NCBI GenBank assembly: GCA_048881705.1
Contig: JBHLSH010000003.1
Span: 37,890 to 101,889 of the forward strand
DNA from: Candidatus Heimdallarchaeota archaeon
GTDB taxonomy: Archaea > Asgardarchaeota > Heimdallarchaeia > Hodarchaeales > Hodarchaeaceae
DNA: 64,000 bases
Reading direction: 5' to 3'
Shown: positions 1 to 11,258 of the stretch, one piece after another
Layout: each line of letters begins with the position of its first letter
How positions within the stretch are numbered: position 1 is the first letter of the stretch
Notes under the pieces: model-generated
The model's input: the letters and a program-made list of their open reading frames with translations, nothing else
Database searches by the model: none
Told to the model about the DNA's origin: nothing
Position numbers and translations under genes: made by a program

Positions 1-3000
1 AGTTATGAGGTTTTAGCTCGGCCAACCAGTATCACTGGGCAATATGGGAGTCAACCACTTACCAATGATACCACCATTATTACGAGGTTTTTTGCGAACA
101 GCTCCGCTGATAATGTAATAATCAATCTTGAGTATTATGATGTCTTAACCTCCAATGTCTTGGATACGGGTGGTCCGTTTGTCCTATCCCTCATCCCAAG
201 CACAGGCACCATAAAAGAAAGTAACCTGTCCTGGACCTTGACTTTTAATCCCAATCGGACCGGGACCTTCCTCATCAATATCACCTTCAGCTTGCTAAAT
301 CATTCTGATGCCTTGTTTATTTTCCATTTGACTGTTTTGAAAGCCACAACAGCAATTTACAGTGAATTACCTGCAAATTCATTGCTCTATTACAGTGAAA
401 GCATGGACTTCTTTCTCCTATATAACAATACTAACTACAATGAGAATATAACGGGCTTAACGGTGGGATCGGGCATCAGTCTTAATAATACGTACCTCAT
501 ATTTCTTAATCAGACCGGAGATTTTTACTGGTTCCGTTTGAATCCTGTCGCTTTGCCCCTTGGAATATACGGTACGAATATCACCTTTGAACACGTTTAT
601 TTTAAATCTAGTTTCATCCTGGTGAGTTTCGAGGTTTTACCGCGTACTACCGACCTCACGGGACAGACCGGGAGTCAACCCCTGATTAATGATACAACGG
701 TTATCACCCAGTTCTTTGCTAATAGTTCCGCCGATAGTGTGACAATCAATCTCGAGTATTATGATGTATTAACCTCCAATGTTTTGGATACGAGTGCTCC
801 GTTTGTTGTATCTCTCATCCCGACGACAGGCACCGTAAAAGAAAGCAACCTGTCCTGGACCTTGACTTTTAACCCCAATCAGACTGGTATCTTCTTAATT
901 AATGTCTCCTTCAGCTTGGCAAATCATACCGATGCCCTCTTTGTATTTCATTTAACAGTTAATAAAGCCCCAACAGCTGCCTACAACAGCTTACCTACTG
1001 ATCCTAAAGCCTATTATAATGAAAGTGTTGATTTTTTCCTTGTTTACAACAACACCTACTACAATGAAAACATCACGGGTTTGATAGTGGGGTCGGGCAT
1101 CGCTCTTAATAATTCCAAGGTCAGTTTTCTTAATCGAACGGGAGACCAGTACTGGTTCCGCTTAAGTCCATCTACCCTACCGCTTGGGATTCAGGTTACC
1201 AATATTAGCTTTTCACATGTATACTTTGAATCCAGCTCCATAGTGGTGAATTTCGAGGTTATACCTAGGCCGACCGATCTCACGGGACAGTTTGGGAGTC
1301 AACCCCTAATTAATGATACAACCATTATTGCCCAGTTCTTTGCTAATAGCTCTGCTGATAGCGTGGCTATCAACTTGGAATATTACGACGTGTTTTCTTC
1401 AAACGTCCTAGATACGAGTTTACCCCAAATTTATTCCCTCATCCCGAGCACAGGCACGGTAAAAGAAAGTAACCTGTCCTGGACCTTGACTTTTAATCCC
1501 AATCAGACAGGAATCTTTCTCATCAATGTCACTTTCAGTTTGGCAAATCATACTAATGCCCTTTTCATTTTCCATCTTACAGTCGACCAAGCGCTGACAG
1601 ATATTTACAATGAATTACCACCCATTTCGTTGGTCTACTATAACGAGAGTTCTGATTTCTTTCTCCTCTATAATAATACCAATTACAACGAAAACATAAC
1701 TGGGTTAACGGATAACGATGGTATAACAATTAACAACAGTAATATTGTTTTCCTGAACCGAACTGGCAATTATTATTGGTTTCGCCTAACGCCAAATCCC
1801 ATAGGTCCAGAAACCTACGGTACGAATATTACGTTTGGACATGTTTACTTTGAATCTAGTAGCGTAGTGGTGCTTTTCGAAGTTTTGCCTAGACCAACCG
1901 ATATTACTGGTCAGTTCGGGAGTCAACCTCTAATTAATGATACAACCGTGATCTTTCAATATTTTTCCAACGGCTCCGTTGATAGTGTAACAATCAATTT
2001 TGACTATTATGATGTTTTTACAAGTAATACTCTTGACTCAGATGCTCCTCAAGTTGAATCCCTCATTCCAATCTCAAGTACATCCCAAGAAAGCAATCTA
2101 TCCTGGACCTTAACATTTAACCCAAATCAAACTGGAGTATTCCTAATTAATATCACCATTGGCTTAACTAATTACACCGATGCCCTCTTTGTATTTCATT
2201 TGACAGTTAATAAAGCCACAACAGCTATCTACAATGGCCTGCCACCTGATCCCACCCTTTATTACGGTCTATCCACCGATTTTTACCTGCTTTTCAATAA
2301 CACGATTTATAATGAGAATATCACGGGATTAACAGAAGGAACAGGTATCATCCTTAATAACACTAATGTAAGCTTCCTCAATCGAACGGGAGACCTTTAT
2401 TGGTTTCGACTAAGCCCGATTTCCCTCGCAGTCGGGATTTACGCAACCAATATCACCTTATCCCACGCAGATTTCGAATCGAGTTTCGTAGTAATTAGTT
2501 TTGAGGTTTTGCCGAGTCCAACTGGTATTAATGGGCAATACGGTAGTCAACCACTTACCAATGATTCGACCGTTGTTAATTTGTTTTTCGCCAACAGTAC
2601 AGCGGATAGTATAAGTTTCAATCTTGAGTATTATGATACTTTGACTTCTAATGTCCTGAATACGGGTTTTCCTCTGATCCTCTCTATGATTCCGACCACA
2701 AGTACCGTTAAAGAGAGCAATTTATCTTGGACGTTGACCTTCAATCCTAATATGTCCGGAATCTTCCTTATTAACTTCACCTTCAACCTAGCCAATTATG
2801 AAAGCGCCCACTTTATTTTGCATTTAACCGTCGAGAAAGCCCAAACCTCGATTTATAACGGGTTTCAAAGTGTTTCCGCCGTCTATTACGATTTACCGAC
2901 CGATTTTTACCTGCTTTTCAATAACACAAATTATAATGAGAATATCACGGGCTTAACAGTCGGTTCGGGGATCACTCTCAATAATACCAAGGTCAGTTTT

Positions 3001-5658
3001 CTTAATCGCACAGCCGATTATTATTGGTTCCGCATTAGTTCAACTACACTACCACTGGGGAATCACGCCACCAATATTACCTTCGATCACGCCTACTTTG
3101 AATCCAGCTCCGTTGTCATTTCCTTCGACATCATTACGCACCCCACCGATATGGTAGGAAGGCAGGGTGGTCAGCTTCTAGTAAACGATACAACAATTGT
3201 TACAAGATATTTCTCAAATAGTTCTGGAGATGCCGTGATTATCAATCTCGCATACCTTAGTGGAATAAATGGTACCATCCTTGATACAAATACCCCCCAA
3301 GTTGTTTCAATGATTCCAATCACGGGTACCGTAAAGGAAAGCAACCTTTCTTGGACCTTTACATTTAATCCAAACAAGACTGGAATTTTCCTCATAAATG
3401 TCACTGCTACCCTAGCTAACTACGAAGATGCGCTATTTATATTCCATTTTTCTGTTAACAAAGCCCCCACAGCCATTTACAATAGTCTCCCCCTAAATCC
3501 AGATATTGCCTATGATACCGTTTTGGACTTTTTCTTAATATACAATAACACCAAATATAACGAGAATATCACGGGATTGACCGAGGGTTCGGGAATCATC
3601 ATTAATAACACCGATGTGGGTTTCCTTAACCGCACAGGAGACTTATATTGGTTCCGCTTGAGTCCATCGCCAATATCTCCTGGATTTCACGCTACAAATA
3701 TCACATTTTTGCATTTGGACTTCGAAAGTAGCGCAATAATTATCAATTTCAATGTATTCAACAGGTCTTTAATCATTGATAATCTCCTCTCCAATCCAGG
3801 GAGTGGGCAGAATATTGATTATTTATTGTTTGGAGAAGTGTTTTATTTTAACGTTTTCATAAACGATAGTCTAACACTATTGCCTATTAACTCCTCTTCC
3901 GTTTTTCTCCCGAATTATGTTGTATTTCTAGGGACAGTTAAAGAAGGGAACCATTCCTTCAGTTTTAACGCCTCAAAGATCGGTCAGTTCTTAGATCTAA
4001 AAATAGTATTTGCTTTGGAGAATTATGAATCGGTAACATATAACATCTCCTTTGTTGTTGCTCCTGCAATAACAGGCTTTGGACTAGGAACTACTCCCGT
4101 TAACGGTTCCATACTAGGTAACACAGGAGATTTTTGGCTTACGGATTCACGTAACATTTCAATTCGATGGATAGAGACAGTATATGGATCAAGCATCACT
4201 GATCCGACCCCAGAGCTTTTTGGTGATTGGGTAGGATTCATAACATATATAGAATTTTCTAAAGATGGAAGACACATTTTTTCGCTTAATGGTACAAAAT
4301 TAGGAAGTTTTCGCATTTCCATTATCTTTGAGACACAAAATTATTCAAAATCAATATTCCTCATAGAGTTTAATATTAGTGTGATCCCAACGTTCGAACC
4401 TGTGGTTACATTTCCGTCGGAACTTATTGTCGGGCAACTATTCCCAATCTCACTGGAACAATGGTTGAGCCTACAAACTCTAAGTGTGCCGCTTTGGGAG
4501 ATCCATGTTCTCAATGGAAGTTCATCCATATTTGCTATGTCGGATCATTCGCAGACTTTTCCTATCACCATAAATATCTCAACTGAAAACTTTAGACAAG
4601 GGATTCATACTCTGACGATTTTTCTAACGAGTACCTACGGATACGAGAACCAAACATTCGAAATCACGTTTAATTTGATTGGAAGAGAAATTCTGATTAC
4701 CATTTTAAGAGATCCAGAAGTGCTCGTTCAAGGCGCCGATTTCACAATAATAGCTATTCTTGAGTACGCCTCTCTGAGGACTCATTTGAGTGGAATTGGG
4801 GCTGGAATAACCCTTTCGTCTTTGGAAGGGATGCCAGTAACATTTAAAGTCGATATACTTTATTTAAACGGCACCGTCAAAACATTAACACATTCTACCG
4901 AAGCTAATGCAACAGGAGTGGCAACATTCTTGGTGGGAGGTCAATTTACTCATAATGCTGATGGGATTCAGGGAATCACCGTAACCACTGGAATTAATGC
5001 CTCAGCTAAAAGCAGTTCGGCTACCACCCCATCGAATTTTATTGATGACAATAAGTTTGCTTCTGAAGGAGGGGATGATCCTCTGAGCCCCTTGTATCCC
5101 CTAATCTGGGTTTCCCCCCTAATAGTGTTTTTGATATTTATGACGCCCGTCCTTCAGAAAGTAAATCGAAGAAGAAAAAAGGATGGTTCAAAAGTGCAAA
5201 GAATAGAAACACCTAGCGGCAAACCAGGGGATAGTACGCCGTCTATTGAAAAGAAAGAGTCTCCGCCACCAGCTGCAAGGGCTGTTTCTCCATCCCCTCA
5301 ACAGATTTCTGGCGTGCACAAAGTTTCAGATGTTAAAGATGAAAAACCCTCCATACCTGAAATCAGCATCTCAGAAGAATCAAGGTGGATAAATAAGTTT
5401 CCTAAATCCTTTTCCAATTACGAAAATGAGCTAAAGTTTCTTTTCAAATTAGTAGTGGAGCGGGCTGGGGCTTATCGTTATCAAACATCCTTAAAATATC
5501 TCCTTTCCCGCGCTCCCAAGGGCCTTTCTAAAACAAATCTAGAAATGATCTTTAATGACATTTCTGTAAAGACAGACTATTTTGAAATAAAAAGAAGGTC
5601 GATAGTTATCACAGAAAAGGGGAAAAAGATCGCTTTAAGTATCCTGAATTCAAAATGA
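1..5658 (+). CDS. Giant single-pass surface protein with tandem 208-aa beta-rich repeats, C-terminal TM helix and cytoplasmic Pro-rich linker + winged-helix-like domain (5'-truncated by the window)
   Basis: Frame is open from base 1 (SYEVLARPTSITGQYGSQPL...), upstream of the tracked TTG at 160. Six repeat units. Hydrophobic LIWVSPLIVFLIFMTPVL (~5101-5154) followed by RRRKK. Tail ends in IVITEKGKKIA. Confidence 0.9.
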   Translation, partial: SYEVLARPTSITGQYGSQPLTNDTTIITRFFANSSADNVIINLEYYDVLTSNVLDTGGPFVLSLIPSTGTIKESNLSWTLTFNPNRTGTFLINITFSLLNHSDALFIFHLTVLKATTAIYSELPANSLLYYSESMDFFLLYNNTNYNENITGLTVGSGISLNNTYLIFLNQTGDFYWFRLNPVALPLGIYGTNITFEHVYFKSSFILVSFEVLPRTTDLTGQTGSQPLINDTTVITQFFANSSADSVTINLEYYDVLTSNVLDTSAPFVVSLIPTTGTVKESNLSWTLTFNPNQTGIFLINVSFSLANHTDALFVFHLTVNKAPTAAYNSLPTDPKAYYNESVDFFLVYNNTYYNENITGLIVGSGIALNNSKVSFLNRTGDQYWFRLSPSTLPLGIQVTNISFSHVYFESSSIVVNFEVIPRPTDLTGQFGSQPLINDTTIIAQFFANSSADSVAINLEYYDVFSSNVLDTSLPQIYSLIPSTGTVKESNLSWTLTFNPNQTGIFLINVTFSLANHTNALFIFHLTVDQALTDIYNELPPISLVYYNESSDFFLLYNNTNYNENITGLTDNDGITINNSNIVFLNRTGNYYWFRLTPNPIGPETYGTNITFGHVYFESSSVVVLFEVLPRPTDITGQFGSQPLINDTTVIFQYFSNGSVDSVTINFDYYDVFTSNTLDSDAPQVESLIPISSTSQESNLSWTLTFNPNQTGVFLINITIGLTNYTDALFVFHLTVNKATTAIYNGLPPDPTLYYGLSTDFYLLFNNTIYNENITGLTEGTGIILNNTNVSFLNRTGDLYWFRLSPISLAVGIYATNITLSHADFESSFVVISFEVLPSPTGINGQYGSQPLTNDSTVVNLFFANSTADSISFNLEYYDTLTSNVLNTGFPLILSMIPTTSTVKESNLSWTLTFNPNMSGIFLINFTFNLANYESAHFILHLTVEKAQTSIYNGFQSVSAVYYDLPTDFYLLFNNTNYNENITGLTVGSGITLNNTKVSFLNRTADYYWFRISSTTLPLGNHATNITFDHAYFESSSVVISFDIITHPTDMVGRQGGQLLVNDTTIVTRYFSNSSGDAVIINLAYLSGINGTILDTNTPQVVSMIPITGTVKESNLSWTFTFNPNKTGIFLINVTATLANYEDALFIFHFSVNKAPTAIYNSLPLNPDIAYDTVLDFFLIYNNTKYNENITGLTEGSGIIINNTDVGFLNRTGDLYWFRLSPSPISPGFHATNITFLHLDFESSAIIINFNVFNRSLIIDNLLSNPGSGQNIDYLLFGEVFYFNVFINDSLTLLPINSSSVFLPNYVVFLGTVKEGNHSFSFNASKIGQFLDLKIVFALENYESVTYNISFVVAPAITGFGLGTTPVNGSILGNTGDFWLTDSRNISIRWIETVYGSSITDPTPELFGDWVGFITYIEFSKDGRHIFSLNGTKLGSFRISIIFETQNYSKSIFLIEFNISVIPTFEPVVTFPSELIVGQLFPISLEQWLSLQTLSVPLWEIHVLNGSSSIFAMSDHSQTFPITINISTENFRQGIHTLTIFLTSTYGYENQTFEITFNLIGREILITILRDPEVLVQGADFTIIAILEYASLRTHLSGIGAGITLSSLEGMPVTFKVDILYLNGTVKTLTHSTEANATGVATFLVGGQFTHNADGIQGITVTTGINASAKSSSATTPSNFIDDNKFASEGGDDPLSPLYPLIWVSPLIVFLIFMTPVLQKVNRRRKKDGSKVQRIETPSGKPGDSTPSIEKKESPPPAARAVSPSPQQISGVHKVSDVKDEKPSIPEISISEESRWINKFPKSFSNYENELKFLFKLVVERAGAYRYQTSLKYLLSRAPKGLSKTNLEMIFNDISVKTDYFEIKRRSIVITEKGKKIALSILNSK
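46..3789 (+). repeat. Six tandem coding repeats with an exact 624-nt (208-aa) period
   Basis: G(S/G)Q(P/L)L codons start at 46, 670, 1294, 1918, 2542 and 3166. Recurrent motifs ESNLSWT(L/F)TFNPN, YNENITGL and YWFR. Confidence 0.95.
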
Positions 5659-5739: not shown

Positions 5740-8700
5740 TTGCGAATAATTCGATGGAACCACACCCTACAATATATTAGGATTGGGTCGCTAGTAATCC
5801 TTATGCTTATGTTAAGTTCAGTGTATACTCAATTATCACTAATCTTACCCTTTACTGATTCCTTACACGATGATGATGTCGATGTGAACACCCTCGCCGG
5901 CAATAATGCCAGAATCAGAATACCAAGCTTGATGACGGAAACTGGTGGTGGTTCCATTTCTGATTTAATCTCAAGTTCACATTACGATAGTTCCTCTATT
6001 AAATCTGCCATCGGACAACAAACTGGCTTTGGTGGTAAGAGTTATTCGGTCTATGATTCATTTAACTGGACTAGTGTTGAAATTCTTACGACTCAGAACA
6101 CGCTTTCGGGGGGCCTGCCAACAGGTCGGACTGATTCGCTCACCATTTCTGATCCAACGGGGTTCACCAGGCAATATGGAGAATTCAACATTTCTAGTGT
6201 CGCTGCTAGCTCTGACTGGAGGTTGATTGAAAACTTCGATAACACTCTGCGGGGGCCCGTGAATTCGGATCCTAATGGACTGGGATATTACGAAGTGGCC
6301 ATGTCCTTTAATATCACAGAAGCATTTGTAAACGTGACAAAGGTTCGAATCATCAATAATTTTAATCCCCTCGGCTCACCCCAAGGAACCTTGTACATCG
6401 TGAATTCTACGGGTGCAGGACAGCCAGATGACAATCAGGTACTTACAGAGAAATTGACTTTGCAGGTAACGGGGATTCAATGGGATACATACACCTTCTC
6501 CAGTCCTGTTTTTCTCACAAAGGGAATGTATTTCGTTGTTATGAACGATACATTGCAGGATCCATCCAATTACTGGCTTTGGTATTGGCAGCATGATCTA
6601 ATTGATGATGGGAGTGAAGATGGCACTGCATATTCTAAGCAATTCAGTCATTCAACATGGCAACCATGGGGAGGTGGGATTGCAACATTACCTCTTCAGA
6701 TCGAGGCCCTTCCTCTGGAGTTCAATGGGACTGACTATGTAAATAGAACCTATACTGATCCCTATTCCCTAGGTTTCAGTTATAATACTTCTGCTGGCAA
6801 CAGAGAGCTGACCACATTTACCTGGTTTGCCTGGAATGATACAGCGACCCATTCTTTTCAGACCAATACTTCTGTCACATTTGAGTTGACGTTTGTGGCC
6901 AATTACACTTATTCGTTAAATCCTATCCTGGCTGGATCGTCTTACATCGCTGTCAACAATTCAGTTGTTAGCTGGAATTTAACCTTTTCAACTTCCGTCT
7001 TGAATACCACTTATAACGTTCGGAATCACACCGTGAAAATTTCCAATTTCGAATCAGATTGGAATGGGACAAGTATCTACTGGAATAACTCACTTACCCA
7101 GCAATATAGCGATCTTCCTACCAACCTGGATGTATCACCCTTTGGAAATTACGCCACGCGATATCAACATGGGGTGCATACAACGATCTACATCAATGCC
7201 AGTGATTTGTCTGAAAATACCACGTGGCATACCTGGTTCGAAGCCCCGAACCATCTTCTCAATTTCACTATTAGTTTAGGTAGCACTCCGCTTGGGTTCC
7301 CCTATAAAGCTAATGTCACCGATGTATTAAACCTAACATTCTACAACTCAAACATTGGTAATCTAACGTATTGGATTGATTTTCCAAATGGATCTACCCG
7401 TACTCGAGTTAATATCAATACGACGCACTCAATTTTTTGGGAAGAATGGGATATTAACAACACAGTAGATCAAACAACCTACGTCAATGGGACCTATCAG
7501 CTCCAGGCGTTTTGGAACAACAGTGATCTTACCCAAGTGGGAACTTTTACCAGAAAGTTGGATATTTACATCAATACCTCGCTTTCGGTACAGGCTGATA
7601 CTGAAGTTATCATAGGAGAAAAATTCAATGTTACTGCGCTCTACAAAACGATACATAATGATACGGATATTAGTCGAGTGAGGATCTGGGCCAATGCAAG
7701 TTGGCCGCATGGTTCAAAACAAAATACCTCCATGAACCAGCTCATAGATGATTCATATAATGCATCCTTCATAACTACGGGACAAAATAAAGGTTTTATT
7801 GGGACGGTTACGGTGAGTACCCACTTGGGGTGGTTTGTCAACTGGTCACGTATAATATCAGTAAAATTTGTCGAAGCTTCAACACTCACTCTAAATTCCA
7901 CCAATATAAAACTACAATGGCGAGAGAATGTGACGCTGAGAATTGAATATAATGACACTACCCTCTTTAATGCTATCGAAAATGCCACTATAACTATAGA
8001 CGGAAATTCAGCATTTAACGATAGCGACAATATTTACTACTTTCGCCTAAATTCAACATCTTACGGAATTGGACCCCAAACTATACCAGTAAGTGCGAGC
8101 CACAACAATTATTCCTCGCAAAATGCGGTCATAACACTTTCCATAACACCTGGCGAAACTACGATAGAGGGAGCTTATAAAGGGCAGGCCCTAGGCAACG
8201 CAACAACTGTTCCGGAAAATCTAATTTTTGCAGCGAGTTCTCAGGATCAAGTCACTATTAATTTAAGATATTATTCCACCTTTCCGACGGATCTAGCCCT
8301 GAACAATACCCCGTCCGTGAATTCGCCCGGAATATCCGATGTGACTCTTCAACCAGAAACCAATTTCACGTGGACGATCGTTCTCAATCCCTCCGCAATT
8401 GGACTTTTTACCGTTGATGTAACTTTTTCAATGCCAAATTATAATTCAAGCAAATTTTTCTTCCAAATAAACGTAATAAAGGCAGCCACCGAGATTTCTA
8501 GTGGTATATCGTTTCCATCACCAATATATTTCACTGATAGTTCCGATTTTTATTTACTCTATAATAATACTGTCTATAATGAATTGATTCCCTCAGTAGT
8601 CCCAGGAATCAATGATTCTGCAAAAATCCGGTTTCTGAATCATACTGGATTCCAATATTGGTTTCGATTTAATTCCAGCCAATCTACTATTGGAACAAAT

Positions 8701-10320
8701 GCGGTGTTGATTTCTTTGGCAGGGGCCGATTTTGAAACCAGTAACATCACCGTGGTTTTTACTGTAACGGAAATGCCTACCCTTCCAATACCCCTATCTC
8801 TAGTACACCCGATCAATGACGGGACTGTGCTAGTGGAAGACTTTCTAGAAATAACCATTGATTATTTCCAAACATTTAGAGGAGTAAACATAACCAATCT
8901 TGATGAGATTTTATTGCGGTTAAATGGGACACTTGTGCCTGAATCGACCTTTATGATTAAGCAGTTCTCTCAGGCACCGTTCTCGATTTCTGTTTCAACC
9001 GAAGGCTGGCAATACGGATTTTATAATCTCACATTACAAGTACAAACCATCGGATACCAATCGCAGTTTGTTTCACTAGATTTAACACTCCTAGGGCGTC
9101 CTACTTGGATGGAACTTGAGATCTTGCCTGGTAAAACGATATCACAAGGTGAAAACGTCACATTCACAGTTTCACTACACTATAATGTAACAACTGGAAG
9201 TGGGTTTGGATCAAGTCTGAATTTAGTTCCTCTTGAAAACGTAGAAGTTTTCTTTTACGTCATTCTTATGTACGGTAATGAAACATCCACAATATATGAG
9301 CAAACTGTGCTAACTGACAGCAACGGACAGGCTACGTACGTTATTGACGGTCAATTTACCCTAGAATCCATCGGATTTGAAAATATTACGGTTAGTACTG
9401 GCCCGTCACTTTCAGGCCTACCTACCAAACTTGGATTAACCAATCTGGAGGAATATCACTTTGTGACCCCTCCTCAGGACCTTTGGGAACTTTTAGCCCC
9501 TCTGTTATTGCCGCTTGCGGGTTTCTTGCTAGCCTTTGGTTTGGCGGCGGCTGGTGTTTATAGGTTCAATCAATCCAGGAAAGCCCGTAAGGTGCGAACA
9601 ATTCAAGTTGACCGCACCATTGAAAAGGGATTTGAAGATATTAAATCCATAAGGTTGGTAATTGCACGGCATCAATCTGGGCTTCAATTTTATTCCGAAA
9701 AAACCATCGCTGAACTTCAAGCGGATACTGATGCCTTGTCAGGTATGTCCGCGGCCCTTTCTTCATTCATGGAAGAGGTTTCAGAGAGCATGCGCTCACG
9801 AAAAGAAGATGCAGTCGAAGCAAAAATTGAAACCATGAGTAGAGAGGGCTTACATATGCTTGTGTGGCATGGACGGTATTCCAGCCTACTCATCATATCG
9901 GAAATTGAGCTCCCTGATTATTTCAGGGACCGTCTCGATGGCTTAGGACATGAAACTGAAGGAAAATTTGAACTCGAACTCAAGGACTTTTATTCGACCG
10001 ACCAAATTCCTTCCTCAATTGTGAAAAAGATTGTACGAAGACACATTCCTCTGCATTATTTCAGCGCATTTGTCTTGAATGAAGGAGTTCTAACGCTAAA
10101 GGACATAAAGCTTTCAAAAAAGCACAACAAGATGCTTAAAATGATCAAAAAGATCATGTTTACAAAAGAAGGTGTTGAATATTTATTCTCTGAACAAATT
10201 ATATCATATTTGGCAACGAAGTATAAGAGAAGTGAAGCTATCAAGTTCCTAGATCATGCTATAGAATTGAATCTGTTGGTGGAATGTAACCAGGAGGATC
10301 TAATACAGCTCGGAAGATAA
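5740..10320 (+). CDS. Large single-pass surface protein: signal/anchor, beta-rich ectodomain, TM helix, cytoplasmic longin-like domain + winged-helix-like C-terminus
   Basis: N-terminal hydrophobic LVILMLMLSSV. One copy of the 208-aa unit at ~8155-8781. TM LLAPLLLPLAGFLLAFGLAAAGVY then RKARK. Cytoplasmic IRLVIARHQSGLQFY...ALSGMSAALSSFMEE pattern is typical of Asgard longin/roadblock-like domains. TTG start with GGAG upstream. Confidence 0.85.
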   Translation: MRIIRWNHTLQYIRIGSLVILMLMLSSVYTQLSLILPFTDSLHDDDVDVNTLAGNNARIRIPSLMTETGGGSISDLISSSHYDSSSIKSAIGQQTGFGGKSYSVYDSFNWTSVEILTTQNTLSGGLPTGRTDSLTISDPTGFTRQYGEFNISSVAASSDWRLIENFDNTLRGPVNSDPNGLGYYEVAMSFNITEAFVNVTKVRIINNFNPLGSPQGTLYIVNSTGAGQPDDNQVLTEKLTLQVTGIQWDTYTFSSPVFLTKGMYFVVMNDTLQDPSNYWLWYWQHDLIDDGSEDGTAYSKQFSHSTWQPWGGGIATLPLQIEALPLEFNGTDYVNRTYTDPYSLGFSYNTSAGNRELTTFTWFAWNDTATHSFQTNTSVTFELTFVANYTYSLNPILAGSSYIAVNNSVVSWNLTFSTSVLNTTYNVRNHTVKISNFESDWNGTSIYWNNSLTQQYSDLPTNLDVSPFGNYATRYQHGVHTTIYINASDLSENTTWHTWFEAPNHLLNFTISLGSTPLGFPYKANVTDVLNLTFYNSNIGNLTYWIDFPNGSTRTRVNINTTHSIFWEEWDINNTVDQTTYVNGTYQLQAFWNNSDLTQVGTFTRKLDIYINTSLSVQADTEVIIGEKFNVTALYKTIHNDTDISRVRIWANASWPHGSKQNTSMNQLIDDSYNASFITTGQNKGFIGTVTVSTHLGWFVNWSRIISVKFVEASTLTLNSTNIKLQWRENVTLRIEYNDTTLFNAIENATITIDGNSAFNDSDNIYYFRLNSTSYGIGPQTIPVSASHNNYSSQNAVITLSITPGETTIEGAYKGQALGNATTVPENLIFAASSQDQVTINLRYYSTFPTDLALNNTPSVNSPGISDVTLQPETNFTWTIVLNPSAIGLFTVDVTFSMPNYNSSKFFFQINVIKAATEISSGISFPSPIYFTDSSDFYLLYNNTVYNELIPSVVPGINDSAKIRFLNHTGFQYWFRFNSSQSTIGTNAVLISLAGADFETSNITVVFTVTEMPTLPIPLSLVHPINDGTVLVEDFLEITIDYFQTFRGVNITNLDEILLRLNGTLVPESTFMIKQFSQAPFSISVSTEGWQYGFYNLTLQVQTIGYQSQFVSLDLTLLGRPTWMELEILPGKTISQGENVTFTVSLHYNVTTGSGFGSSLNLVPLENVEVFFYVILMYGNETSTIYEQTVLTDSNGQATYVIDGQFTLESIGFENITVSTGPSLSGLPTKLGLTNLEEYHFVTPPQDLWELLAPLLLPLAGFLLAFGLAAAGVYRFNQSRKARKVRTIQVDRTIEKGFEDIKSIRLVIARHQSGLQFYSEKTIAELQADTDALSGMSAALSSFMEEVSESMRSRKEDAVEAKIETMSREGLHMLVWHGRYSSLLIISEIELPDYFRDRLDGLGHETEGKFELELKDFYSTDQIPSSIVKKIVRRHIPLHYFSAFVLNEGVLTLKDIKLSKKHNKMLKMIKKIMFTKEGVEYLFSEQIISYLATKYKRSEAIKFLDHAIELNLLVECNQEDLIQLGR

Positions 10321-10334: not shown

Positions 10335-11258
10335 CTGGAAGCCTATCGTTTTTGGCTCATTAATGATCAGGGGTTTTATATCTACGATGAAAAGTATCAA
10401 GGTAGAATTGTTTTAACACGGGAGGAAGAAGATGCTCTTATAGCGGAAATCTATAACGATCCAAGGTTGAAAACCCCAGATACCACGATTCTTTCCCGCG
10501 ATATCCTACCCTCTTACACGCGACTGTATTACAGAAAGTACCACAGTGACTTGTATATTCTCCTAGTTGATGAATTAACTGATTTCACAGAAACAATCGA
10601 GGTTTTTTCGAAATGGGCTGAAAAGCGAGATCAACAAAGAGAGCAATTAAAAGGCCTGGTGTTTGTGGTTTTCGACGATGTCGAAGGACCTAAAGTTATT
10701 TACAATAACATGCTGAAAGAGGAAATTGCTATTCTTTTAGCTGTTCAAGGACAAACCGTATCCTCAATGGGTCGCATGAAAAAATTCAAGATAGGATTCA
10801 AAGAACCTCTAAATGTTCCTAATCGCAATGACTTGGTTCATATGGCCTATGATTTTCTCCAGCCCGCACCGGAATCGGCCGATCCTCGAATTGCAAAAAT
10901 GGGACGGATATCAAATTTATACCTTATTTTTGATCGTTCTTTTCCCTATCTTAACGAAGAGCATTTTAAACTTTCTATTGAAGGGTACCTGGATGAATGG
11001 GTATACAATCATTTTTCCCAGAACTCTGGAGAAAGGCATCCCAAATCATATTCCAACGTGTTTTTTGATGAACTCCTAGAGGATCTTCGTACAACAATAT
11101 CGTCAGCTATAGATGTCGCAACCCATGAGGAGCGAGAAGTGGCACGCCTTAAGGTTTTTGTCATGGAGTTACTTACACAGAACAAAGTACTAACATACCA
11201 AGTCAGAAGATTGAGAGAACGTATCAAAGAACTAGAGGATCTCATAAAAACATCGTAA
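10335..11258 (+). CDS. Longin/uDENN-like domain protein with C-terminal coiled coil (probable CTG start at 10335; tracked start 10467)
   Basis: Frame is open from CTG 10335 (EAYRFWLINDQGFYIYD...). Motifs VFVVFDDVEGPKVIY and DPRIAKMGRISNLYLIF resemble uDENN/NPRL2-type longins. Heptad-like tail VLTYQVRRLRERIKELEDLIK. Confidence 0.7.
   Translation: MEAYRFWLINDQGFYIYDEKYQGRIVLTREEEDALIAEIYNDPRLKTPDTTILSRDILPSYTRLYYRKYHSDLYILLVDELTDFTETIEVFSKWAEKRDQQREQLKGLVFVVFDDVEGPKVIYNNMLKEEIAILLAVQGQTVSSMGRMKKFKIGFKEPLNVPNRNDLVHMAYDFLQPAPESADPRIAKMGRISNLYLIFDRSFPYLNEEHFKLSIEGYLDEWVYNHFSQNSGERHPKSYSNVFFDELLEDLRTTISSAIDVATHEEREVARLKVFVMELLTQNKVLTYQVRRLRERIKELEDLIKTS

Follow-up and report, generated by a model that had tools for sequence, protein, structure and literature searches.

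A predicted winged-helix tail on a giant surface protein of a Heimdallarchaeota archaeon

The 64,000-nucleotide stretch of a Candidatus Heimdallarchaeota genome analysed here (the window, positions 37890-101889 of contig C3) begins inside the gene of a giant surface protein, which ends, behind its last transmembrane helix, in a small basic domain. Which fold this domain has, where else it occurs and what it may contact inside the cell are the questions raised by this locus. Structure prediction gave a winged helix, and sequence searches placed the domain in a small unannotated family restricted to Asgard archaea. The winged-helix tail as a structural claim is solid; that the protein is a transcription factor is put forward as a hypothesis.

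The giant protein and its terminal domain

The plus-strand frame that ends at window position 5658 is open past the 5' edge of the window, and nucleotides 1-5658 correspond to the 3' part of the gene. On the contig the frame opens at C3:31107 and its first ATG is at C3:31113, which gives a protein of about 4,144 residues. A hydropathy scan of this protein revealed two hydrophobic segments only, one at residues 15-39, acting as N-terminal anchor or signal, and the other at residues 3961-3980. The ectodomain comprises about 3,920 residues and contains a repeat motif spaced at exactly 208 residues; its one Pfam match, to the Filamin repeat, was sub-threshold. The initial annotation, made from the sequence of the window, was right in describing a very large ectodomain, but its figure of more than 1600 residues was too low because the window edge cuts the gene.

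The N-x-S/T sequons, potential N-glycosylation sites, number 209 ahead of the C-terminal transmembrane helix and none behind it, and the helix is directly followed by the basic stretch KVNRRRKK. The asymmetry of the sequons, the transmembrane helix and the positive-inside basic cluster together indicate that the tail is cytoplasmic. The topology is that of a type-I single-pass protein, with the positive-inside rule satisfied. The linker announced after the basic cluster, of about 70 residues, was found with 72, and 51% of them are P, S, E or K. This linker is probably disordered or flexible: its end corresponds to residues 1-8 of the structural model described below, with a predicted local distance difference test (pLDDT) score below 50, and neither its length nor its sequence is conserved in relatives. 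Several Ser/Thr-Pro sites (TPSG, STPS, SPPP and SPSP) were also observed in it, and to regard them as phosphorylation sites is pure speculation. As for the basic terminal domain, expected at about 90 residues, its length is 94, and the last 100 residues of the protein have an isoelectric point of 9.8, with 19 K and R against 11 D and E.

The AlphaFold2 model of the terminal domain, obtained with a seven-sequence alignment as input, had a mean pLDDT of 89.7 and a predicted template modelling score of 0.81. Five helices (model residues 7-14, 23-35, 46-51, 59-72 and 87-97) and three strands (43-45, 76-79 and 82-85) were assigned. Their order, helix 1-strand 1-helix 2-helix 3-strand 2-wing-strand 3, is that of a canonical winged helix, plus one extra helix on either side (Table 1). 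The model superposed on solved winged-helix domains over most of the domain, and the top Foldseek and VIA neighbours were all winged-helix proteins, namely F93, MarR, PadR, HxlR and IclR. The structural test that the initial annotation had set for its winged helix-turn-helix thus returned a confident winged-helix topology, and the last 94 residues of the giant protein are predicted to form a domain of this fold. The reading of TEKG as a wing motif also held. In MarR-type domains, LTxxG sits at the junction of strand 3 with the C-terminal helix, and this is the position taken by ITEKG in the model. Among the homologues that likewise form tails of surface proteins (tail-type members), T86 and G89 are invariant, W11 is found in 18 of 19 sequences and F15 and P16 in all 19. 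R36, G38 and T44 show little or no variation, and the stretch encoded by nucleotides 5422-5529 makes up the constant basic patch of the family.

Table 1. Features of the giant surface-protein gene and of its paralogous neighbour in the window.
Feature	Position in window	Strand	Basis and remarks
3' part of ectodomain	1..5097	+	208-residue repeat units, rich in sequons; gene start upstream of window
Transmembrane helix PLIWVSPLIVFLIFMTPVLQ, residues 3961-3980	5098..5157	+	Hydropathy scan; sole C-terminal transmembrane helix
RRRKK basic cluster (5167-5181) and 72-residue P/S/E/K-rich linker	5158..5373	+	Composition; follows the transmembrane helix
94-residue terminal domain	5374..5655	+	Ends in ...SIVITEKGKKIALSILNSK
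N-terminal helix and W-I-x-x-F-P motif, model residues 7-22	5374..5421	+	AlphaFold2 helix 7-14; ahead of the winged-helix core
Helix 1	5422..5460	+	AlphaFold2
Conserved loop R-x-G-x-(W/Y)-x-G-(Q/K)-T-(S/T) and strand 1	5461..5490	+	AlphaFold2, alignment
Helix 2	5491..5508	+	AlphaFold2
Loop between helices 2 and 3, 7 residues, with Pro	5509..5529	+	AlphaFold2
Helix 3 KTNLEMIFNDISVK	5530..5571	+	AlphaFold2; place of the winged-helix "recognition helix"
Beta hairpin ("wing") FEIKRRSIVI, basic tip	5581..5610	+	Strands 76-79 and 82-85
T-E-K-G junction, C-terminal helix (5614-5646) and stop codon (5656-5658)	5611..5658	+	AlphaFold2, alignment
Paralogous 1,526-residue surface protein	5740..10320	+	Same head and repeat modules; transmembrane residues 1251-1273; 253-residue tail at 9559-10317

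A small Asgard family with two architectures

The terminal domain belongs to no family of Pfam, NCBIfam or PADLOC and has no sequence relative in the PDB. Profile searches of Pfam and NCBIfam gave no significant match to MarR, PadR, ArsR or HxlR, and a PDB profile search yielded nothing below an E-value of 0.48. The ESM Atlas offered sub-threshold leads only (0.86; WHD_DUF6293), and HTH_45 was matched, at 2e-4, by one of 21 family members. Searched exhaustively with phmmer, 1.84 billion representative proteins returned only 16 matches, all of them from Asgard archaea; the tail relatives that carry a name come from Candidatus Hodarchaeales, Hodarchaeota, Kariarchaeaceae and Heimdallarchaeota assemblies. 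By profile search the domain was detected in 17 of 400 Asgard genomes. The comparison covered 39 copies from other Asgard genomes and from metagenomes, with identities of 20-60% and always at the extreme C-terminus. Because it is conserved at this position in 39 copies, the domain is not the chance tail of an open reading frame (ORF).

Two architectures carry it. In the tail-type, a sequon-rich ectodomain is followed by a transmembrane helix, a variable linker and the winged helix. This form was found in the genus of the archaeon studied (5 of 22 genomes, a lower bound because giant repeat genes break assemblies) and in metagenomic proteins of Hodarchaeales and Kariarchaeaceae. In the ATPase-type, soluble proteins of 640-940 residues, without a transmembrane helix, begin with a P-loop domain, which a long linker, acidic or rich in Pro, connects to the winged helix. 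This P-loop domain has matches to AAA_16, ATPase_2, KAP and STAND-like models, with a very weak similarity to Orc1/Cdc6 (24 bits, the cut-off being 181). The ATPase-type occurs in the families f18, f19 and f20 and in Heimdall and Hodarchaeales metagenomes, with a weaker match, in a frame of 822 residues, in f31. The domain represents a small unannotated winged-helix family restricted to Asgard archaea, in which the broader setting is the C-terminal end of soluble STAND-like ATPases (AAA_16-type). The genome studied here, whose assembly is 91% complete with 7.5% contamination, has one copy of the winged helix and no ATPase-type gene. The two architectures were found together in no sampled genome and lie in different families of the 400-genome survey.

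A maximum-likelihood tree of the 39 domain copies, rooted at midpoint and with several weakly supported forks, gathered 15 of the 16 tail-type copies in one group, nested among ATPase-type copies. This group adjoins the Hodarchaeales/Heimdall ATPase clade, and the architecture labels require only 1-2 changes over the tree. The nesting and the broader occurrence of the ATPase-type suggest that the surface-protein lineage acquired the module on one occasion, from the ATPase version; the family is in this respect a clear case of domain shuffling in Heimdallarchaeia-type archaea, involving a soluble STAND-like ATPase and a surface receptor. The giant protein studied has a single winged helix, but two orthologues, those of G062 (L008/L021, contig C33) and P0004, have two copies in tandem. 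In the tree, the first copies cluster together and the second copies likewise, so the duplication is old.

The winged-helix fold and membrane-bound regulators are already known. What is new is this unannotated Asgard-restricted winged-helix family, as the cytoplasmic C-terminal tail of giant type-I surface proteins and as a domain that these share with STAND-like ATPases. An incomplete survey of the literature provided no account of winged-helix tails on giant surface proteins of Asgard archaea.

Some further observations concern the ATPase-type carriers. No family name could be given to them, as the matches (AAA_16, ATPase_2, KAP and, weakly, Orc1/Cdc6) were to the P-loop only. In P0026, P0021, P0014, L046:12399-14972 (minus strand) and L047:515-3277 (plus strand), an invariant Q-V-K lies downstream of a conserved PDVFVEF, and these motifs might form a PD-(D/E)xK-like nuclease core. 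ATPase-type genes adjoin SAP-domain, TrmB and AAA_15 (OLD/Abi-like) genes, an environment with the flavour of a defence island. In one complete Asgard genome, a short second copy of the winged helix (L022; G134:C1:2565783-2566184, minus strand) lies about 6 kb from a full ATPase-type gene, in a frame of 121 residues with an in-frame TAA inside the match; it could be a fragment or a stand-alone form.

Possible ligands of the tethered domain

The majority of winged-helix domains of prokaryotes bind DNA, and several features of the family point to this ligand. All members are basic, with a core net charge of +2 to +9 (+7 in the giant protein). Wing positions 78 and 80 are K or R in 17 of 19 tail-type members, N61 is kept in 17 of 19, and position 63 is K or R in 15 of 19, with E63 in the giant protein. 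In addition, the nearest solved structures are DNA-binding regulators. Membrane-bound transcription regulators are also common in archaea, at about four per genome (PMC10269533). We tentatively favour a reading, possible rather than probable, in which the basic winged helix remains anchored at the membrane and has a cytoplasmic polyanion as its ligand, most probably DNA. The ligand would be contacted through the wing, helix 3 and the basic face made by helix 1, strand 1 and helix 2. The domain would probably work as a dimer, because some orthologues hold two tandem copies. The protein would act as an archaeal transmembrane transcription regulator or as a membrane-DNA tether, in a state set by the clustering or engagement of its giant ectodomain.

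Comparison with known systems gave both likenesses and differences. With ToxR, TcpP, CadC and the archaeal ArnR-type regulators (PMC10269533) the protein shares a transmembrane segment joined to a cytoplasmic domain of winged-helix or helix-turn-helix fold, from which DNA could be reached at the membrane, as there is no nucleus. However, ToxR-type proteins have an N-terminal OmpR-type winged helix-turn-helix and a small periplasmic sensor, whereas here the winged helix is C-terminal, of an unrecognised family, and belongs to a type-I protein with a giant repeat ectodomain; neither Trans_reg_C nor any other DNA-binding Pfam family was found in the tail, which shows the generic winged-helix fold only. 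MarR, PadR, HxlR and the viral F93-type proteins are small soluble dimers, whereas this domain lies behind a transmembrane helix and an ectodomain of some 3,900 residues; it has no sequence-family match with them and differs in its long Pro-containing loop between helices 2 and 3 and in its neutral, variable helix 3. The ATPase-type members resemble the winged-helix domain of Orc1/Cdc6, the C-terminal winged helix of MCM and RPA32-C in that a P-loop ATPase is followed by a flexible linker and a C-terminal winged helix, although the profile match to the MCM domain (E-value 0.48) was not significant.

Several results weigh against DNA as the ligand. In the giant protein, helix 3 has a net charge of 0 (K59, E63, D68 and K72). 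Its exposed positions vary among tail-type members, and in the ATPase-type of f19 and f20 helix 3 starts with D-E-E; exposure and surface electrostatics were judged from helical periodicity only. The connection of helices 2 and 3, 7 residues with a conserved Pro, is longer than the canonical helix-turn-helix turn, and most of the invariant residues look structural, being Ser/Thr caps and Gly. Leaving aside the single match to HTH_45, no significant DNA-binding family was obtained in Pfam, NCBIfam or PDB profile searches. The best Foldseek E-value, 0.02, is weak, and likeness of fold does not show function. Finally, sister receptors carry longin-type tails, which are protein-binding.

Part of these results fits a tethered winged helix that serves as an adaptor, recruiting to the receptor tail a cytoplasmic protein (cytoskeletal, of trafficking or ESCRT-like kind, or related to GTPases) and not DNA. 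Such a domain would resemble the winged-helix modules of RPA32-C, MCM-C, ESCRT-II and PCI proteins, and we consider it a serious, if somewhat doubtful, alternative. In its favour, seven paralogous giants of this genome bear other tails, four of an uncharacterised class and three that match a longin/roadblock profile. The neutral helix 3, acidic in distant members, and the long loop before it agree with docking. So do the W-x-x-x-F-P motif ahead of the core, near-invariant in tail-type members, the long flexible linker that carries the winged helix in both architectures, and the gelsolin gene and conserved 263-residue gene found just downstream. Winged-helix domains, moreover, mediate contacts between proteins in the ESCRT systems of archaea, Asgard archaea included (PMC11188069). 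In contrast, the synteny downstream reaches housekeeping genes and is no proof of linkage. The strongly basic character of the whole family, the DNA-binding nature of all its nearest solved structures and the habit of most prokaryotic winged helices also speak against docking. The giant protein is like ESCRT-II (Vps22/25/36) in that this is a cytoplasmic winged-helix module of Asgard archaea. Nevertheless, ESCRT-II proteins have the module in tandem, as do only the orthologues of G062 and P0004 in the tail family, and the single copy studied has no detectable sequence relation to the two ESCRT-II proteins of this genome, one Vps25-like and one EAP30-like (Vps22-like). When the family profile was compared with these by hhalign, probabilities of 0.2-0.35%, below 1%, were obtained, and the ESCRT-II-like winged helix that the initial annotation had offered as its alternative gained no support at the sequence level.

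The other explanations differ in what happens to the tail. In its large repeat ectodomain, single pass and cytoplasmic effector tail, and in the presence of a presenilin-family gene in the genome, the protein is like Notch and other type-I receptors subject to regulated intramembrane proteolysis. Engagement of a ligand could lead to shedding and intramembrane cleavage, the freed linker and winged helix becoming a soluble transcription factor. The type-I topology and the fold itself agree with this possibility. Presenilins and rhomboids cut type-I helices, and S2P and signal peptide peptidase cut type-II helices. The presenilin-family homologue (G000:C88:3077-4081, minus strand, a frame of 378 residues), whose pieces summed to 41-42 bits against a cut-off of 34.3, is thus of the appropriate kind. 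However, the three S2P-type genes of this genome encode enzymes that act on type-II helices, searches of the 91%-complete assembly revealed neither rhomboid (PF01694) nor PF06550, the surroundings of the locus are free of protease genes, and relatives share no conserved juxtamembrane or linker motif. As judged from its gene content, the genome has the capacity for intramembrane release, but nothing ties this capacity to the giant protein. Notch, with which there is no homology, differs in its tail (RAM plus ankyrin repeats), which is itself not DNA-binding. Moreover, release is unnecessary in a cell without a nucleus between membrane and DNA, and the doubts about DNA binding apply to it equally. 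Release by cleavage is quite improbable.

It would also be conceivable, though still rather improbable, that no separate ligand exists, the basic winged helix binding anionic lipid head groups, as DEP-type winged helices do, or dimerising and clustering the receptor tails. The domain is basic and held near the membrane, its core is flanked by N- and C-terminal helices as in dimeric MarR/F93-type proteins, and the orthologues with tandem copies point to a pair as the functional unit. On the other hand, the same winged helix ends soluble ATPases that have no transmembrane helix; DEP-type structures were absent among the neighbours listed, which weighs little either way. Hardly credible is a homotypic adaptor, in which the tail would pair with the identical domain of a STAND-like ATPase, as death-fold and TIR domains link eukaryotic receptors to STAND NTPases. 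That the same domain ends a receptor and a STAND-like NTPase, in both cases on flexible linkers, and that AAA_15 and other defence-like genes occur close to ATPase-type genes would suit such a pairing. Nonetheless, the separate distribution of the two architectures and the lack of an ATPase-type gene in this 91%-complete genome oppose it, and for this genus homotypic pairing was rejected, both forms being present in no sampled genome.

Returning to the membrane-tethered, possibly DNA-binding domain, its furthest-reaching form is that the giant adhesin or receptor signals to the genome, the winged helix binding specific DNA either at the membrane or after presenilin-type cleavage. This is unlikely. 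If it were true, contact with a partner cell or surface would alter transcription. The closest archaeal relatives of eukaryotes would then have an outside-in pathway like those of Notch and ToxR, formed when the winged helix of a STAND ATPase was grafted onto a receptor whose tails can be exchanged. Close physical association with other microbes is characteristic of Asgard archaea, and the locus bears on how contact is sensed. The 94-residue domain offers a small, expressible handle on the inner link of the receptor, be it DNA, a protein adaptor or the membrane.

Paralogous receptors and neighbouring genes

In a genome scan, at least eight giants were recognised as sequon-rich and single-pass; their tails measure 166-282 residues. 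The winged helix is the tail of one of the eight, three have longin/roadblock-type tails, assigned by profile match to the tail of the neighbouring paralogue, in which alone the fold was modelled, and four share a third conserved class. We infer that the winged helix is one of several interchangeable cytoplasmic output modules of a family of giant receptors or adhesins. Folded tails that can be swapped indicate the layout of a receptor family and not of passive envelope proteins. Tails of the third class, of about 190 residues, have the motifs SFFDQ..GP.PI and NPEARGGQENL, and the giants that bear them (1,546-3,424 residues) are encoded outside the window, on C19 (two genes), C4 and C60.

In the model of the tail of the paralogue encoded immediately downstream (pLDDT 82), a juxtamembrane helix precedes a longin/roadblock fold, which is followed by a small C-terminal part of helix and strand. 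The fold of this tail matched the Sec22b longin (Foldseek E-value 3.5e-4), the VAMP7 longin domain, AP sigma subunits and MglB, and large proteins with a longin-type tail of this kind were found in 162 of 400 Asgard genomes. The helix-strand C-terminal part has a winged-helix-like order of elements. Kinship between the winged-helix and longin-type tail families was considered and discarded, no relation being found by hhalign.

Genes upstream of the giant are metabolic, and those in its neighbourhood include a gelsolin-repeat protein, a Ras-family GTPase, Cdc48, PAC2 and SerRS. With the ESCRT-II genes and the origin of the named tail relatives, this gene content marks the genome as that of an Asgard archaeon, probably one of the Hodarchaeales. 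The order winged-helix giant, longin-type giant, 263-residue ORF and gelsolin gene is kept in G058, G062 and G071. SerRS, PAC2 and Cdc48 are kept as well, and since these are housekeeping genes the conservation reflects colinearity throughout the genus and is no evidence of an operon or functional cluster. The 263-residue ORF, at window positions 10467-11258, right after both receptor genes, has no match in Pfam or NCBIfam and is conserved, together with gelsolin, at 51-55% identity in three genomes of the genus.

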